Below, in pieces: positions 28,129-56,663 of a DNA stretch of 64,000 nucleotides. The first letter of the stretch is position 1. Every line of letters begins with the position of its first letter. Origin of the DNA: a virus (lineage: Duplodnaviria; Heunggongvirae; Uroviricota; Caudoviricetes); the IMG/VR virus record IMGVR_UViG_3300042562_001169, one strand, 5' to 3'. Below the pieces are notes generated by a model, which saw nothing but the letters and a program-made list of their open reading frames with translations, was not told where the DNA came from and ran no database searches. A program made the position numbers and the translations under genes.

Positions 28129-28482
28129 TTAATCAATATGATATTTAGTGATATGATATCTACCACATTTATTACAATGCCAAGTAGTATATACAACCTT
28201 TTCAACGTGTAGATTATATCTTTCCATAAACCAAGGGATAAAGATATCGTTTATATCATAACCACTTGTAACACCAAACATAGATACTAATTGATTTGAT
28301 ATCTCCTCAGATAATTCAACTATTCCATTATCACGATTAAATGTGAAAGACATATCGTCACCACTATCTTTATAGATAATAAATCTATGACCAACGGAAT
28401 ACTTCCTTAAGTTACCATAGTCCATATCCAACCATTTGGTAACGACATTTTTTCTCTTGTTCTCTGTGATTATTACTTTCAT
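28129..28482 (-). CDS. MKIIITE-family paralog (MKVIITENKRKNVVTKWLDMDYG; C-term PWFMERYNLHVEKVV plus CNKCGRYH ribbon)
   Basis: Carries both the N-terminal and the C-terminal family motifs. Confidence 0.55.
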   Translation of the reverse strand: MKVIITENKRKNVVTKWLDMDYGNLRKYSVGHRFIIYKDSGDDMSFTFNRDNGIVELSEEISNQLVSMFGVTSGYDINDIFIPWFMERYNLHVEKVVYTTWHCNKCGRYHITKYHID

Positions 28483-28784
28483 ATTTGTTCTACTCTATGA
28501 CATTTCTTGGCTCTAAACCCAAACTTTTTATTACCCCAATCCAATAACAACTCACTAACTTCATCGTTATCAAATCCGAACATACTACGGATAAAATCCC
28601 ATATTTCATTTAAAACATAGAATCCTTTTACTCTACTGTTGTAAAGCATTTTGAACATTCCCTTATCGGATATGAATACTCCTTCGTGTGAGGGGAATAT
28701 CATCTTTTTTAAGTCGGGATATTCCTCTTCTAACCAATTAATGGCGAGACGGATTCGTTTGTTCTCTGTGATTATAATCTTCAT
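28479..28784 (-). CDS. MKIIITE-family paralog (MKIIITENKRIRLAINWLEEEYPD)
   Basis: Coupled to 28129-28482. Confidence 0.55.
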   Translation of the reverse strand: MKIIITENKRIRLAINWLEEEYPDLKKMIFPSHEGVFISDKGMFKMLYNSRVKGFYVLNEIWDFIRSMFGFDNDEVSELLLDWGNKKFGFRAKKCHRVEQI

Positions 28785-29659: not shown

Positions 29660-29671
29660 TAGATAGAAAGA

Positions 29672-29700
29672 ACCTCACCAATTAAAGGTGGGGTTTTTTA
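29672..29700 (+). terminator. rho-independent terminator
   Basis: cctcaccaattaaaggtgggg followed by tttttt. Confidence 0.7.
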
Positions 29701-30581
29701 TTATAAGATAAAATACTAAACGATAAATCTATTCGTTCATAGTCCTACACTCCGTTCCGGAATTCACTCATAGTTTCATCCTTTACTATTTTCTTATGTA
29801 TAAGAAATCCATTTATTTATACACGTCAACTTCCATATGTATAAAAAACTCAATAATTTATACATAACAGTTTACAGTTTACTATAAACAGTCAATAGTA
29901 AACAATCCCCCCACTTATACCGGGGGAACAGAGTTCCCCCCTCTGAAGAAGGGGACAATAAAGGGACACGATTAGTTATCCGGTATGGTGTTCATTATTA
30001 ATGAATGTTCATTTGCAATGAACAATAAGATTAAATGAACATTGTAATGGATATTACGGTAACTTGTATTACGGTATCGATTAAAAAGTTATGTTTTGTA
30101 TCAATACAGTCAGTTTTAAACTCACAAGAGTGATACGAAACATAAGTTTTAATGGTATTTTGTGTCTCTATGGTGTCCCATATATAAATCATTTAGTTCG
30201 TCCATTGTAGGGTATTTAATTGTCCCCTAACGGTTCGTTGAAGTAATCTTCCTAACACCTAACGGTTCCCACGCATCATACACCATTACTGACATTTATC
30301 GCTGGGAAACACCTATAGTAAAATAATTAGTCCTGAGAGTATCGTCAGGGGGAAAAAATTGACTTCTCACTATGCTGGAACACAATAATGGTGGGAGAAA
30401 GTGGTAAACTAAGGTAAGTCTGTGGTATTAAAAGGGGGAAAAGGATTATCCCCAATGACGAAAGAGACTGACATTTTGTCAAAAACAAGAATTTTAACAT
30501 AAAAAGTTATTAACAATTCCCCCTGACAGTGTTGATAAGTGGATTGTTGATAACTATATTTAGAAAAAGTTATTAACAATT

Positions 30582-30875
30582 ATGGTACCAAAACAATACT
30601 TAACCGGATTTACCCCTACTGTCAGTGTGTCAGGTGATACATATATAGTGGATTATGAGATAGGGGAATGTGTATACACCTATTCGAGGGTGGGGAAAAG
30701 AATAAAACAGGAGGTCCTTCAACTTATCAAATGTGATATGTGGAAGGTGATTACATTAATTAATGAGGACAACCAATTAGACGAGGGGGATTATAGGGAT
30801 ATCAATATGGAAATCCGGAATCATTCCCTACGTTATGTGACTGAGTTTATAAATGGTCAGAGTCTTCATCTATAA
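30582..30875 (+). CDS. hypothetical protein (island gene, atypical codon usage)
   Basis: ORF inside the C-tract-rich island. Uses ccc/ggg/cta codons that are rare elsewhere in the window. Confidence 0.35.
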   Translation: MVPKQYLTGFTPTVSVSGDTYIVDYEIGECVYTYSRVGKRIKQEVLQLIKCDMWKVITLINEDNQLDEGDYRDINMEIRNHSLRYVTEFINGQSLHL

Positions 30876-31326
30876 TAGTTCTCTTCCACCACTTCAGGAA
30901 CTTGTTATCCGGAGAAAGGTGGGGGATGATAAGTTTGTCTATCAATATCATTATGATGGATAGAGAACCCATTACCATTAGGAAGATTAAAAATGTCAAC
31001 ATAGTTTATATTATTAAGAGTTACCGGTGATAATCACCGTCAATTAGTAAAGATACAAATAAATTATGACATTCTCAACAAAAGGGGGGATTGTTTAATA
31101 ATAATATTAAATAAAAAAAATAAACCCTTAGTGTGATTATGAGATTCGTAATAAAATGGGGGATTTATATAAAAAATATAAAGCAGGTTGGAGTCTACTC
31201 TTCCACCACTCGGTCCGCCCCCTGTCGGGTTGATTACCGATTCAGTGATACAAATATACGACTAATAATTTACACCACCAAACAAAACCGGGGATTATTT
31301 AATATTATTTCAATATATTTATCTGT

Positions 31327-31809
31327 ATGGCAAAAGAAGAAACACCAAAGGACATTACCCCAAAGAAAAGAAGGGGAATAGATATTGCAGTCAATGGACT
31401 AAGAAAGACATATCCATTTGTAATAGGGTATGAGGATGACCCGGGAGACCAATACGCAGCATCACACTACATTGATTTAATAATAGACCTACAGAAACTA
31501 TCTGACTATATGGATGTTCCTGTTAATCCCTATTGGGTGAACTTCGCAAGTCATCCGGACTATAGAAGGATATACTCCTTATGGTCCTACCTGAAGTTCC
31601 CCGAGGAAATTGAGGTTACATATGATAGAGACATATCAAACCATCCCGGATATAAATTGGGGAAGGATGTAATCTATCTACTTGAATCTATATATGAATA
31701 CATCCCCGAGGAATACAAACTGTTCTATGAGTTCACCTCTGAGTTTGCCCCCGACAAACCTATGACACTCCCCGTGACTCTAAAGGTTAACGGATACATT
31801 ATGACATAA
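31327..31809 (+). CDS. hypothetical protein (island gene, atypical codon usage)
   Basis: ORF preceded by atatatttatctgt. ccc/aga/ata-rich codon usage. Confidence 0.45.
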   Translation: MAKEETPKDITPKKRRGIDIAVNGLRKTYPFVIGYEDDPGDQYAASHYIDLIIDLQKLSDYMDVPVNPYWVNFASHPDYRRIYSLWSYLKFPEEIEVTYDRDISNHPGYKLGKDVIYLLESIYEYIPEEYKLFYEFTSEFAPDKPMTLPVTLKVNGYIMT

Positions 31810-31901
31810 GGTCATGTTCATAACCTGTTGATAACTTCTTATCATAAGTTATTAACAACTGTCACCCTGTCATGTTGATAACTTTATTTGGATATATCGA
31901 A

Positions 31902-31935
31902 TACACTCCCTACCCCCCTATAATTACATAGGGGG
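31902..31935 (+). terminator. rho-independent terminator
   Basis: cccccctataattacatagggggttttttt. Confidence 0.55.
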
Positions 31936-32040
31936 TTTTTTTGACCCCTCCCCGGTAAACACCCCCCATACCCCCTCCCTTACTACCGTGGGGGTATCCC
32001 CCCTCCCCTCCCTCCCCCTATAATAGTCCAAATAGGGGGG
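31936..32040. repeat. C-tract-rich structured segment (G-quadruplex/i-motif-capable: G5-A-G3-A-G4-A-G6 on the minus strand)
   Basis: gacccctccccggtaaacaccccccataccccctcccttactaccgtgggggtatcccccctcccctccctccccctataatagtccaaatagggggg. Confidence 0.6.
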
Positions 32041-32175
32041 ATAATCCCTTCTGCAACGTCTAAGGGTAAAAAAAACTTTATATGAAAATCGTTTTAAAAT
32101 TTCTAAAAAAATTTTTGGGAAAAAATCCCCCCAATTAATGGGGTGTCCGGATAGTGAAAAAAAATTTTTGGAAAA

Positions 32176-32207
32176 ATTTGGTGGGAATTATGGAATGTAT
32201 TATCTTT
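32176..32207 (+). promoter_or_regulatory. Bacteroidota-type promoter (TTTG ...20 nt... TAtcTTTG)
   Basis: -33 element at 32176-32179 and -7 element at 32200-32207, upstream of the 32222 ORF. Confidence 0.5.
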
Positions 32208-32221
32208 GTAAAAAATAAGAT

Positions 32222-32470
32222 ATGGGAAAAGAAACGGTTGAGCAGGGGTTTGATAGAATATACGATTCAATGGATTTTACTGAATTTTGTTTTCCTTCAT
32301 TTAAGTTGGGGGTTAAATGGGAACAAGAACAAAATGGTTTAACTATGGATGAGGGGATTGACTTTGGTAAGGAGTTATCTAAATGGGGTTACAATAAGGG
32401 TAATTCAATTGATGTTGAGATTTTGGTTAATGAGATACTTCCGGATTTATTCAAACAATTTAATAAATAA
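32222..32470 (+). CDS. hypothetical small protein
   Basis: ORF after the promoter. Confidence 0.4.
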   Translation: MGKETVEQGFDRIYDSMDFTEFCFPSFKLGVKWEQEQNGLTMDEGIDFGKELSKWGYNKGNSIDVEILVNEILPDLFKQFNK

Positions 32471-32473
32471 GAT

Positions 32474-33229
32474 ATGAGAAATATATTTTTAATCCCCACT
32501 TCAATGGAGAGTAGATTGTGGAGGGATTTGGATTCCAATAAATTGACGTTTGAAAATTTATCGAAACCCAATAGTAATGAATGTACCAAGTGTTCCAATG
32601 AGTATGTGTATATTACCTCTGATGAGAAATTTGTTAGAGATGAATATATAACTGATGGACTTGAGGTAATTAAGGCAACACCAAAGTTGGTTGATGCTCA
32701 AGGATTGGTTAATAGAAGAGAATGGAAGAAAATCGTTATGACCAATGACTTGGAATTAACTGAGAATGGTATTCAACAGATTGGGGATTTATTTTTCCGA
32801 TGGTTTGTTTTGAATCCTACCTGTGAGGAAGTTGAGATTGGTAAAACCAATAAACTCCTTGATGTATATGAGGACAAGTGGGAAGTGAGATATCACATTT
32901 ACGATATACACGAGAAACCGAAAAAGAATTTCTATTGTGGGGATGAGGTTGACTATGGGGAACAGTGTGACTTTCAATGTGAGAGATGTGTTAATTGTAC
33001 CGGAGTTGATTATGGATATCTTCCAAAGGAGGATTTGGGTTATACCACTAAGATTGGGATTAAGGTTGTCGATGGTATGGTTAGACCTCTTATGGTTCCA
33101 AAGAAATATTTTGGTGAAGTTGAACATATACATTATAGTTCGGTATTTGATTGGTTATCTAAAAAGGATTACCTATCTGATAAACGAGAAGATATACAGA
33201 GAGAGTTTGAACAATACTTAAATAAATAA
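32474..33229 (+). CDS. hypothetical Cys-rich protein (CGDEVDYGEQCDFQCERCVNC)
   Basis: ORF; terminator downstream. Confidence 0.45.
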   Translation: MRNIFLIPTSMESRLWRDLDSNKLTFENLSKPNSNECTKCSNEYVYITSDEKFVRDEYITDGLEVIKATPKLVDAQGLVNRREWKKIVMTNDLELTENGIQQIGDLFFRWFVLNPTCEEVEIGKTNKLLDVYEDKWEVRYHIYDIHEKPKKNFYCGDEVDYGEQCDFQCERCVNCTGVDYGYLPKEDLGYTTKIGIKVVDGMVRPLMVPKKYFGEVEHIHYSSVFDWLSKKDYLSDKREDIQREFEQYLNK

Positions 33230-33743: not shown

Positions 33744-33786
33744 CCACCCGAACTCCCTCCGGTCGTATTCAAATCCCCCCGCCCCC
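33744..33786 (+). repeat. 43-bp GC-rich direct repeat, copy 1 (ccacccgaactccctccggtcgtattcaaatccccccgccccc)
   Basis: 41/43 identical to the copy at 35897-35938. Both copies sit directly after stop codons. Confidence 0.85.
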
Positions 33787-33803
33787 TTTTTTTGAAAAAA
33801 TAT

Positions 33804-35896: not shown

Positions 35897-35938
35897 CCAC
35901 CCGAACTCCCTCCGGTCGATTTCAAATCCCCCCGCCCC
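35897..35938 (+). repeat. 43-bp GC-rich direct repeat, copy 2
   Basis: ccacccgaactccctccggtcgatttcaaatccccccgcccc. Confidence 0.85.
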
Positions 35939-35981
35939 TTTTATTTTGGAGTTGGGGGATATTTATTATAAAAGATATATT

Positions 35982-36314
35982 ATGTTTTCAGCAGGTGGAG
36001 TTTATGTAATGGTAGCAGGAATCCTATTGGGATTAGCTGTTATAGGTGGGTCAGTTTATTATGTTAATAAAATGTTTGCTGATAACACTCAGGAAATATT
36101 GGTTCGGTTTATTTTATTAATATTCACCTCATTGGTTGCGTTATTTATTGTTGATAAGGTAATTGCTTGGCAGGTTAAACTATTGAGTGATGAGCAGAAT
36201 GGGCAATTATTTGATTTGATTAAAACATTGGTGTTAATGATATTCTCGTATTACTTTGGAACTAAAGAAGGAGTTGAAACCAATGGTGACCAAAATAAGA
36301 AAGATAAAGAATGA
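35982..36314 (+). CDS. small membrane protein (3 TM)
   Basis: The ATG at 35982 is preceded by gggggatatttatt. The track start at 35946 lies in the repeat/terminator. Confidence 0.45.
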   Translation: MFSAGGVYVMVAGILLGLAVIGGSVYYVNKMFADNTQEILVRFILLIFTSLVALFIVDKVIAWQVKLLSDEQNGQLFDLIKTLVLMIFSYYFGTKEGVETNGDQNKKDKE

Positions 36315-36616
36315 AAATTATTATAACAGAAGAACAGTATGGTAGAATGTTTAATTCCAAACTTTGGTTAAGACGTAACTATGATTTGGTTAAACAGGAG
36401 TTGAAGGCTACAATGGACTTCACCCGGGACCGTATCTGTGATAAAGATGAATTTGAAAATTTTGAATATTATTTCTTCTCCGTGTTTATGGATTGCCTTC
36501 ACCCTTATTATTATGAGGAAGAGAATTTTGATTATAAGGAATTTCAAACCACGTTAACTGATATGTTCTATGTTGAATGTACCGAGTTTTATTTTAACGG
36601 TAGAGAGAAATGTTAA
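36311..36616 (+). CDS. MKIIITE-family paralog (MKIIITEEQYGRMF)
   Basis: Tandem array member. Confidence 0.55.
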   Translation: MKIIITEEQYGRMFNSKLWLRRNYDLVKQELKATMDFTRDRICDKDEFENFEYYFFSVFMDCLHPYYYEEENFDYKEFQTTLTDMFYVECTEFYFNGREKC

Positions 36617-55391: not shown

Positions 55392-56663
55392 ATGAATAAA
55401 TTAGACAAAACATATCAGGACTTACTCCAAGACATTCTTGACAACGGAGTAGTAAAACAAGACAGAACAGGGACGGGAACAATCTCGGTATTCGGAAGAC
55501 AAATCAGACATAAAATGTCAGAAGGATTCCCATTACTTACAACCAAAAAAATGCCATTCAAAACAATCGTAACAGAACTTCTTTGGTTCTTAAGAGGTGA
55601 TACCAACATTAAGTTTTTGGTTGATAATGGATGTAATATTTGGAATGGTGATGCTTATAAGAACTACATAAATAACCCAGCTTACAAAGCTGAATCTGTT
55701 GCCGATTTAATGGGTTCACAAGCAGGTCAATTGGTAAAATGCTCAACACAAGAAGAGTTCATCAACAAAATAAAGACAGATGATGAGTTTGCTAAGAAGT
55801 GGGGTGAATTGGGTCCAATTTACGGTAAGCAATGGAGAAATTGGGGGAGGTTTGAGTATGAAGGTTTCACCCAAGAAGGTAGCGAAACATTAAATAACAT
55901 AGATGTAAATTGGAAAATACCAACAGACCAAATCCAAAACCTAATCAACGACCTTAAAACAAATCCAGACTCAAGACGATTGATGGTTAATGCTTGGAAT
56001 GTTGGAGAACTGGACCAAATGGTTCTTCCACCTTGTCATTATGGATTTCAAGTTTATACAAGAGAGTTGAGTAATGAAGAACGATTAGATTGGATGAGAG
56101 GTAATAAGTCTAAAGTAATCTTACCAATGAGAGACCCTAATATTGAGTTTTCTATGGATGAATGGTTTAGACCATACGGAGTTCCTAAACGAGCAATCTC
56201 TTTAATGTGGAATCAACGTTCAGTAGATACATTCTTAGGATTACCATTCAACATTGCTTCTTATGGATTGTTATTAGAAATAATTGCAAAAGAAGTTAAT
56301 ATGGTTCCTGACCAGTTGATTGGGAATCTTGGTGATGTTCATTTATATTCAAATCATATTGAACAAGCCAAAGAACAAATTGGAAGAGAATATACTCACC
56401 AAGAAAGAGATGAATTGTTACAACAAGAGATGGGTAGAGAAAGATATAATAAGGCGGTTGATGAATTGATGCCGTTCGGTGGGGGATTAAGTGGATATTA
56501 TGAATTTTATAAAATTCCATATAGAACAAGAGAACCTTATCGATTACCAACATTAGTAATGGTTACTAACCCCGATTTAAAGTTTGATGAATATGTTTAT
56601 GATAATTTAAAACTTGTAAACTATCAATCACATCCAACCATTAAAGCACCTTTAAGTAATTAA
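55392..56663 (+). CDS. thyA: thymidylate synthase ThyA, long form with small-domain insert and extra C-terminal insertion (423 aa)
   Basis: DRTGTGT, PLLTTKK, LPPCHYGFQVY (catalytic Cys), DTFLGLPFNIASY, GDVHLYSNH. Insert ...DEFAKKWGELGPIYGKQWR as in the L. casei/B. subtilis ThyA type. Confidence 0.9.
   Translation: MNKLDKTYQDLLQDILDNGVVKQDRTGTGTISVFGRQIRHKMSEGFPLLTTKKMPFKTIVTELLWFLRGDTNIKFLVDNGCNIWNGDAYKNYINNPAYKAESVADLMGSQAGQLVKCSTQEEFINKIKTDDEFAKKWGELGPIYGKQWRNWGRFEYEGFTQEGSETLNNIDVNWKIPTDQIQNLINDLKTNPDSRRLMVNAWNVGELDQMVLPPCHYGFQVYTRELSNEERLDWMRGNKSKVILPMRDPNIEFSMDEWFRPYGVPKRAISLMWNQRSVDTFLGLPFNIASYGLLLEIIAKEVNMVPDQLIGNLGDVHLYSNHIEQAKEQIGREYTHQERDELLQQEMGRERYNKAVDELMPFGGGLSGYYEFYKIPYRTREPYRLPTLVMVTNPDLKFDEYVYDNLKLVNYQSHPTIKAPLSN

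Follow-up and report, generated by a model that had tools for sequence, protein, structure and literature searches.

In T4-type phages, the elements named PeSL join an intergenic early promoter to a polyG/polyC stem-loop, lie upstream of ORFans and have both promoter and terminator activity (PMC2839356). In this study, we analyzed a locus in a 64,000-nucleotide stretch of DNA (the window) from the Caudoviricetes record IMGVR_UViG_3300042562_001169 of the IMG/VR database. The locus, called the island below, occupies about 2.5 kb (29700-32221) and is poor in open reading frames (ORFs). A sequence-only reading, made from the letters without database searches, had taken it for recently acquired DNA, decayed genes and/or non-coding RNAs. 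From its comparison with related genomes, we tentatively propose instead that the locus is a conserved cis-regulatory and non-coding-RNA hub of a jumbo-phage lineage and not imported DNA.

Lake jumbo phages are known almost only as ORFan-rich metagenomic contigs. The window has about 31-32% G+C and is densely filled with short ORFs, mainly on the plus strand. Few of these ORFs have recognizable domains (nitroreductase, thymidylate synthase, ClpP, SPFH, glycosyltransferase, acyltransferase and metallophosphoesterases). ARAGORN found no tRNA gene in the window, and GenBank phages gave neither a nucleotide nor a protein match to it. The window holds no virion gene; we infer that its source is most likely an uncultured freshwater jumbo phage.

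Results

Conservation of the island

Used as a query, ORF1, one of the two plus-strand genes of the island (Table 1), retrieved two IMG/VR contigs. A 19-mer from the ORF-free part (ATCCGGTATGGTGTTCATT, at 29978) retrieved 5 viral and 33 metagenome loci, and at least 36 of these 38 are true relatives. The relatives are IMG/VR contigs of 208-322 kb and many metagenome contigs, mostly from lakes judging by the record names. L-numbers (L001, L002 and so on) denote the related contigs or genomes that were compared with the window. The sole match in a bacterial genome, a metagenome-assembled genome of Saccharicrinis, was considered as a clue to the host and rejected as a chance match, since only the 19-mer was shared.

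By BLAST, the entire 29.7-32.15 kb aligns to about 30 related contigs with 71-85% identity and an unchanged internal order. It usually lies directly 3' of the same nitroreductase gene (84-90% identical), which is missing in some genomes (L003, L005), and the genes to its right vary from genome to genome. ORF1, ORF2 and a third gene, ORFm, are kept in all relatives, and the variable genes lie outside the island. No relative with an empty site was found among the contigs recovered. A constant island between variable flanks is the opposite of recent acquisition, and the sequence-only reading was not borne out on this point. The island ORFs contain no integrase or transposase domain; an HNH gene occurs at the locus in L002 only.

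Conservation is higher in the ORF-free parts than in the genes. Nucleotide identity is about 68-92% in the non-coding parts, while amino acid identity falls to about 40% for ORF1 and to about 22% for ORF2. Element A (29893-30581), the ORF-free stretch ahead of ORF1, retains 67-85% nucleotide identity even in the lineages with these most divergent proteins. In 50-nt bins, identity is 0.8-0.9 over much of element A, 0.6-0.8 in ORF1 and 0.3-0.7 in ORF2. The third-position excess of coding DNA is present in ORF1 and ORF2, and no such 3-base periodicity is seen in the ORF-free parts. No reading frame in these parts is open across the relatives, and the indels are not in multiples of three. Decayed genes, the second proposal of the sequence-only reading, are therefore excluded. 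As judged from the alignments, the sequence outside the ORFs is non-coding and functional. Coding in another frame, through a recoded stop or for a small peptide was rejected for the same reasons (closed frames and indels not in threes). The minus-strand ORF 30409-30579 was also dismissed as a gene because it is lost in the divergent group.

Two folded domains on opposite strands

A1, the first part of element A, folds strongly on the plus strand. Its minimum free energy (MFE) is -89.9 kcal/mol (z score -7.0). Among 25 distinct homologues, 23 have a plus strand that is more stable than the minus strand. The RNAalifold consensus of 26 sequences has 41 pairs in seven helices, and 98.5% of the cells across these pairs are paired. 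A closing helix, GGACAC/GUGUCU (29964-69 / 30162-67), spans 200 nt and encloses two nested GUUCA/UGAAC hairpins (29988-30042) and a 20-bp hairpin (30086-30148). The nested hairpins are the tgttcatt/aatgaaca inverted repeats that had been noticed in the letters. Compensatory double changes are present at 4 of the 41 pairs; one of these replaces C-G by G-C in the long-range closing helix. For covariation, the score was 0.086, against 0.052 for shuffled alignments (none of 500 reached 0.086) and at most 0.034 for slid partners. Pairs vary through G-U at seven positions and through A-C at none, an asymmetry that folding of the plus strand in single-stranded form would produce. The front of A1 (29907-29954), earlier described as a hairpin-forming tract, is indeed a compound G/C stem-loop: an outer CCCCC/GGGGG helix surrounds an inner G/C hairpin, and the latter occurs in six mutually compensating versions among the relatives.

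The folded part does not extend over the whole of element A. One large ornate RNA covering 29893-30581 was rejected, as averaged pair probabilities back only the segments 29988-30042 and 30086-30148. The 3' half of this stretch was rejected as RNA as well: RNAalifold gave it no plus-strand advantage and no compensatory double changes in well-kept pairs.

Two kinds of rearrangement were observed in and around A1. The 27-nt loop of the 20-bp hairpin (30104-30130) is reverse-complemented between lineages (GTCAG..CTCAC versus GTGAG..CTGAC) when the window is compared with L001, L011, L015, L016, L021, L030, L032 and L037. The orientation differs even in the closest relative, L011, which indicates repeated flips, as between inverted repeats. 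In addition, palindromic mini-insertions of 23-25 nt, GACAC...GTGTC(GGTC), occur at differing sites of the conserved non-coding element: before 29965 in L006 and L021, in the loop near 30015 in L036, and near 30199 in L021 and L032. Three tandem 25-nt units follow ORF2 in L002 (L002:3570-3640). These mini-insertions look like tiny mobile hairpin repeats.

The e90 element folds on the other strand. In the window, its minus strand reaches -22.5 kcal/mol (z -3.6) versus -8.9 kcal/mol (z -0.55) for the plus strand. In 10 relatives, the minus strand reaches -21 to -36 kcal/mol and is each time better than the plus strand by 8-21 kcal/mol; over the window and relatives, the minus-strand z score ranges from -3.6 to -8.4. 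In the consensus hairpin of 28 pairs, G-U variants occur in the minus-strand sense, and two pairs, both doubtful, show compensatory change. Identity between genomes is 80-96%, and at least 90% in most. A covariance model of e90 (R1) found one copy per genome and two in L001; L008 and L023 gave only weak matches (21-23 bits). The second copy (L001:6489-6594, 85% identical) follows, when read along the minus strand, immediately after homologues of the minus-strand genes found at 28129-28784 in the window. Such a position suggests that e90 can serve as a module at the 3' end of minus-strand transcripts. From its predicted fold, e90 is a candidate for either a small RNA or the 3' structure of a minus-strand transcript.

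The genes at 28129-28482 (minus), 28479-28784 (minus) and 36311-36616 (plus) are small paralogous ORFs with a common N-terminus, MK(V/I)IITE(N/E), and represent a multi-copy ORFan family.

For non-coding RNAs, the third proposal of the sequence-only reading, folding energy, strand asymmetry and compensatory changes gave support at A1 (plus strand) and e90 (minus strand); 30168-30500 gave none. Both are candidate new RNA families, with modest covariation support. No Rfam model reached its gathering score anywhere in the window; among 4227 models searched up to E 10, the best score was 33.9 bits against a gathering score of 52, for an Enterococcus small RNA model over the terminator. The island elements had no match in Rfam, Pfam, PHROGs or among known folds.

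Curved DNA, boxes and promoter-like modules

A2 is as well conserved as A1 and is unfolded. Its folding is no better than that of shuffled sequence (plus strand z -0.03, minus strand z -0.64), and base-pair probabilities averaged over 26 homologues support no helix in it. Between 30330 and 30530, AA recurs with a period of 10.5-10.75 bp in 25 of 26 relatives (power 1-2 versus a median of 0.15). Such helically phased A-tracts indicate intrinsically curved DNA, a feature at the level of DNA rather than of RNA. A palindrome in A2, TGACAtttTGTCA (30469-30481), has its single occurrence in the window here.

The box motif TTATYAACA occurs at 15 sites in the window versus 5.6 expected, and seven of them lie in two clusters totalling 130 nt. 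The left cluster accompanies P1 (TTGATA-17-TATATT), the region's best sigma-70-like match. The motif TATATTTA is found in P1 at 30555-30562, 19 nt upstream of the ORF1 start (30582), and again at 31314-31321, 5 nt ahead of the ORF2 start. A TGWCA-n3-TGWCA motif is present in the promoter-like module, and the left cluster contains the only TGACAnnnTGTCA palindrome of the window. All 23 relatives with aligned sequence over this part retain the first box and TATATTTA; the alignments of three others stop short of it.

The right module repeats the left one, and direct repeats D5, D11 and D13 flank ORF1-ORF2. The repeats around both genes that had been reported earlier are real: AAAAAGTTATTAACAATT is present in two exact copies and TGTTGATAAC in three exact copies plus variants, all within 30504-30579 and 31815-31884. 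The right module also carries TGTCAcccTGTCA and TTTATTTGG and is conserved in 16 relatives, with an A/B stem that is invariant save for a C-A pair in L005. In a modelled RNA, the boxes could pair into either of two hairpins that exclude each other, and the second would cover the ORF1 start. An obligatory RNA hairpin between A and B boxes was rejected, because divergent lineages lack the B boxes and the C-A pair occurs in L005. The loss of inverted partners and this C-A pair fit protein-binding sites better than an obligatory hairpin.

Spacer and left end

The spacer between e90 and A1 contains a 30-nt imperfect inverted repeat, I1 (29794-29823 / 29838-29867), and a promoter-like TTTACA-17-AATAGT at 29871-29899; e90 and A1 are oriented outward from it, in opposite directions. 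In L002, an HNH/endonuclease-VII-like ORF of 168 aa (L002:1058-1564) is inserted in this spacer, at the equivalent of window 29800-29900. L016 has an insertion of about 500 nt at the same spacer, between the matches to window 29873 and 29900. These two cases mark the spacer as a homing or insertion hotspot. The hairpin that ends the nitroreductase gene could be usable in both directions, judging by the U-rich stretch that follows it on the minus strand.

Genes and element B

The sequence-only reading had recognized two genes, ORF1 and ORF2. Both are real, conserved protein genes; it had overlooked the third, ORFm, on the minus strand at 30847-31002. ORFm is conserved at the protein level in 14 genomes despite diverged DNA and has the motif IIPxLxPDNxFxKWW(K/R). 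Its product consists of one hydrophobic helix, a charged tail and a conserved polar C-terminal domain. No Shine-Dalgarno sequence was found at any gene of the region. The start contexts of two consecutive genes at the right end are near-identical: TAAAAAATAAGATATGGGAAA (32209-32229) and TAATAAATAAGATATGAGAAA (32461-32481).

Element B includes the palindrome ACCGGTGATaATCACCGT (31023-31040) and two ATTCNNA..GGGGGAT units (31071-31091 and 31144-31164) that are specific to the island. The unit ATTCTCA-n7-GGGGGAT is inverted in L002 and L033, with at least three copies matched by regular expression and degenerate ones seen by eye. A conserved block at 31170-31262 holds the hairpin CUGUCGG/CCGAuuCAG, and the alleles CTG-TCGG/CCGA-CAG and CAT-CCGG/CCGG-ATG of the element B hairpin are mutually compensating. 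A/T-rich stretches are located at 31090-31135 and 32060-32125.

Right end of the island

At T1, a G/C stem with a T-run is present in every relative, and the stem varies through G-U and double changes. The C-rich spacer that follows has G/C hairpins at 31989-32003 and 32014-41; its folding does not exceed background (z -0.5 and +1.0). Within the window, the motif CYCC..GGT..CCCCCC..CCCC has exactly three occurrences (31948, 33757 and 35910). Those at 33757 and 35910 belong to a 50-nt C-rich intergenic repeat (33744-33793 and 35897-35946, 92% identical) that brackets the neighbouring two-gene cassette, and the C-rich core of the island (31948-31975) is a diverged third copy of it. The repeat is also multi-copy in relatives (L001 at 12861, 13274 and 16688; L002 at 4614, 6088 and 12437). 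On the minus strand, GGGGGAGGGAGGGGAGGGGGG (31998-32018) has the canonical form of a G-quadruplex-type motif, with loops of 1 nt; several relatives have it unchanged, and it is degraded in L003 and L011. The A/T-rich stretch at the end of the island contains repeat D12, inverted repeat I7 and minus-strand terminator-like sites, and a promoter-like TATCTTTG (of the TAnnTTTG type) stands at 32201, ahead of the next gene.

Table 1. Features of the island and its borders, in window coordinates (a point marks features with no assigned strand).
Feature	Position	Strand	Basis or remark
G/C hairpin with T-run (CCTCACC..GGTGGGG TTTTTT)	29667..29699	+	3' of nitroreductase gene; repeat family D1
e90, long interrupted hairpin, ~95 nt	29706..29800	-	Fold, strand asymmetry, conservation
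Variable spacer, insertion hotspot between e90 and A1	29801..29902	.	Length and sequence variable
A1, strongly folded domain	29903..30172	+	MFE, strand bias, covariation
A2, conserved but unfolded non-coding	30168..30500	.	Identity 0.6-0.9 per 50-nt bin, no codon periodicity
Left box module with P1	30497..30581	+	TTATYAACA at 30507(+), 30530(-), 30545(-), 30570(+)
ORF1, 97-aa conserved protein	30582..30875	+	
ORFm, 51-aa single-pass membrane protein	30847..31002	-	Convergent with ORF1, 29-nt overlap of its 3' end
Element B, non-coding	31003..31326	.	Alignments; frames not conserved
ORF2, 160-aa conserved protein	31327..31809	+	
Right box module, second copy of left	31815..31892	+	TTATYAACA at 31826(-), 31849(+), 31873(-), variant at 31815
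T1, intrinsic terminator, CCCCCUAU-loop-AUAGGGGG + U7	31914..31942	+	3' end of ORF1-ORF2 unit
C-rich, G-poor spacer with two G/C hairpins	31943..32062	+	Conserved blocks
A/T-rich stretch	32063..32221	.	AAAAAAATTTTTGG(G)AAAA x2, small G/C-clamped hairpins; partly conserved

Composition, codon usage and repeats

Much of what the sequence-only reading had described in the letters themselves was confirmed. Between 29700 and 32221, 30582-30875 and 31327-31809 are the only plus-strand ORFs longer than 82 aa. G/C runs of at least 4 bases number 10, 19 and 13 per kb over 30-33 kb versus about 2.5 per kb elsewhere; there are 12 C-runs in 31-32 kb and at most two in most other 1-kb bins. ORF2 ranks top among 93 ORFs in G+C at the third codon position (GC3, 0.425), in CCC plus GGG (0.05) and in the five codons named as odd (ccc, ggg, cta, aga and ata; 0.15). 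The same measures for ORF1 are about 1.3 to 2 SD above the mean of the 93 ORFs, and the genes at 33-36 kb show a similar trend in codons and GC3. A compositional shift exists (GC 0.35-0.38 versus a window mean of about 0.32); its size is modest and it extends over 29-36 kb.

Nearly all of the listed repeats are present in the sequence, and two of the direct repeats are accidents of particular lineages. The two copies of tattacggta are there and sit in a 41-nt insertion restricted to five lineages, and cctaacggttc is repeated, but in this genome only. Both copies of tcttccaccact exist as well; the one at 30881 encodes the KWWK of ORFm, and the one at 31196 is part of a non-coding block that is conserved. 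Recurrence of a 12-mer within 2.5 kb is near chance (by our own estimate, about 0.2). The motif ACACTCC was tried as a signal and rejected, as it shows no enrichment.

Two further observations were made on the contigs. In L041 (IMGVR_UViG_3300027747_001761) and L043 (IMGVR_UViG_3300042935_001052), the assembly stops inside or beside the island, which could be due to its repeats or to a genome terminus. Elsewhere in the window, the thymidylate synthase ORF (55392-56663, 423 aa) matches Pfam in two stretches, and an insertion is probable.

Discussion

The conserved non-coding sequence, the strand-specific folds, the phased A-tracts, the clustered boxes and the terminator can be joined in one scheme. 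In the regulatory hub that we propose, transcription would diverge from the spacer, leftward into e90 and rightward into an RNA led by A1. The structured 5' domain A1 might stabilize or regulate the rightward RNA. The curved DNA and the boxes would make P1 a strong, regulated promoter of the ORF1-ORF2 unit, and a single site-specific regulator, which may be ORF1 or ORF2, would bind the boxes at both ends. In the transcript, the boxes may also switch between alternative hairpins, one of which would mask the ORF1 start. ORFm would be read convergently, its mRNA being antisense to that of ORF1 where the two overlap. T1 and the spacer rich in C would serve as insulation between the unit and the next cassette. 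The repeated promoter/terminator modules and the G/C stem-loops would then act like PeSL cassettes that frame a conserved cassette.

Several points weigh against this proposal. All start sites, transcript ends, promoter activity, the box-binding factor and the roles of A1 and e90 are deduced from sequence patterns. The minus strand of A1 also folds well (-76.9 kcal/mol, z -6.2). Covariation support is modest because most pairs of A1 and e90 never vary (30 of 41 in A1 are invariant), and sequences that share descent can outscore shuffled ones without any structure. In L001, e90 and A1 are separated by a spacer of only about 40 nt, which is tight for two divergent promoters. The inverted boxes and the -35-like hexamer of P1 are lost in divergent lineages. 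A Bacteroidota-type promoter, TAnnTTTG, was rejected as a genome-wide signal because its enrichment in the window is weak (55 sites versus 42 expected). No DNA- or RNA-binding fold was found in ORF1 or ORF2. Finally, the 160 nt at 30168-30330 are strongly conserved and have no fold, phasing or recognized motif; the scheme leaves them unexplained.

Some of the same features would suit a replication origin, possibly a transcription-primed one, although we consider this unlikely. Under such a reading, the TTATYAACA boxes would be iterons for an initiator (a DnaA-like protein of the host, or ORF1 or ORF2), the phased A-tracts would bend the origin, the A1 hairpins would be a strand-specific priming or assembly signal, and the G/C runs would stabilize an RNA-DNA hybrid, as in ColE1 RNA II and mitochondrial conserved sequence block II (CSB II). 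The DnaA box consensus is TTATCCACA, and eight TTATYAACA-type sites in two tight clusters each match it at eight of nine positions. However, all eight have A at position 6 and are therefore not strict DnaA boxes, and the only two exact DnaA boxes of the window are both far from the island. The curved DNA kept in 25 of 26 genomes, the essential-looking and highly conserved non-coding block between variable genes, the strand-specific hairpins, the A/T-rich stretches at 31090-31135 and 32060-32125, the minus-strand G-quadruplex-type motif at 31998-32018 and the two assemblies that break inside the island all agree with an origin. On the other hand, the cumulative GC skew rises monotonically through 30 kb with no turning point, gene orientation does not switch there, no replication protein is recognized nearby and neither ORF1 nor ORF2 has an initiator-like fold. 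In addition, the boxes lie exactly where a promoter/operator and a 3' end are expected. It is likewise improbable, in our judgment, that A1 and e90 are stand-alone genes for trans-acting non-coding RNAs of new families whose function is unrelated to the adjacent ORFs, such as decoys, regulators of targets in the host or the phage, or anti-defence RNAs. P1 resembles a promoter of ORF1's own, so A1 need not be a leader; both elements outconserve the ORFs and have no Rfam family. The second e90 of L001 stands in a different gene context, and the weak e90 matches of L008 and L023 (21-23 bits), where the rest of the island is kept, suggest a separable module. Against this, there is no terminator-like 3' end between A1 and ORF1, the sequence right after A1 is conserved yet unfolded, no target or partner was identified and covariation support is modest.

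The view from which the sequence-only reading started, a recently acquired foreign island with decayed genes, appears very improbable. The raised GC, GC3 and rare-codon use of ORF1 and ORF2 would agree with it, as would the HNH endonuclease and the small palindromic insertions of some relatives. However, every relative found carries the island with its order kept, at 71-85% identity and between flanks that vary, and the ORF-free parts of the island outconserve the genes and are non-periodic. The island has no integrase, tRNA or transposase, and its compositional shift is modest and spread over 29-36 kb. A bolder reading has a small chance, below that of the origin or of the trans-acting RNAs: A1 and e90 would be new RNA families that, together with the curved box DNA between them and ORF1, form a transcription-primed origin or master switch resembling RNA II/RNA I. 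If this is true, RNA II/RNA I-like control would exist in a phage of more than 200 kb from an abundant uncultured freshwater lineage.

The locus is one of the few pieces that the lineage keeps constant while neighbouring genes reshuffle, and it is mostly non-coding. It therefore offers a handle for finding the lineage, for mapping the control of its transcription and replication, and for testing two candidate structured RNAs. It also indicates that odd composition and few ORFs can mark the most conserved, and not the most recent, part of a genome.

Comparison with known systems

GOLLD and ROOL are, like parts of this island, long, ORF-free and highly conserved folded phage elements of uncultured communities that were found by comparison. 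The island differs in having no Rfam match, in that only about 270 nt of a 690-nt block fold above background, and in a far weaker covariation. Literature on non-coding RNAs of jumbo phages was also searched, and nothing relevant was found.

Type I toxin-antitoxin loci with 3'-overlapping convergent transcripts include TxpA/RatA and BsrG/SR4. ORFm resembles their toxins in its 51 aa, its hydrophobic helix and charged tail, and the 29-nt 3' overlap with the convergent ORF1. However, its partner is a protein-coding mRNA and not a small antisense RNA, and the conserved polar C-terminal domain is unusual for such toxins.

Iteron-type and RNA-primed origins (lambda ori, P1 oriR, ColE1 RNA II/RNA I) share with the island clustered repeats in two orientations and bent DNA. 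They also share a folded RNA of several hundred nt with G- or C-runs, a possible antisense partner and small adjacent genes. In contrast to these origins, the island has no skew switch, no recognizable initiator and no strict DnaA boxes, and its boxes are placed at the ends of a transcription unit.

The nearest analogue is the PeSL (PMC2839356, PMC4122927). PeSLs differ from the island in several respects. There is no sequence similarity between them, and no Shine-Dalgarno sequence is present here. The genes framed by PeSLs vary, whereas the cassette framed here is conserved in all relatives. Moreover, a PeSL is about 100 bp long, and the comparison leaves the 270-nt A1, the 95-nt e90 and 330 nt of conserved unfolded DNA unaccounted for. 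Nevertheless, both are composite intergenic modules in A/T-rich phage DNA that unite a promoter-like motif with a G/C stem-loop, here P1 with TATATTTA and the hairpins at 29907-54, 31914-35, 31989-32003 and 32014-41. In both, direct repeats bracket small ORFans, here at 30497-30581 and 31815-31892 and in the C-rich repeats at 31948, 33757 and 35910. Both lie in a region of small accessory genes that differ between relatives, and the role of promoter and terminator or insulator is presumed for the island. The comparison would extend the PeSL idea to a phage group without detectable sequence similarity to known phages.

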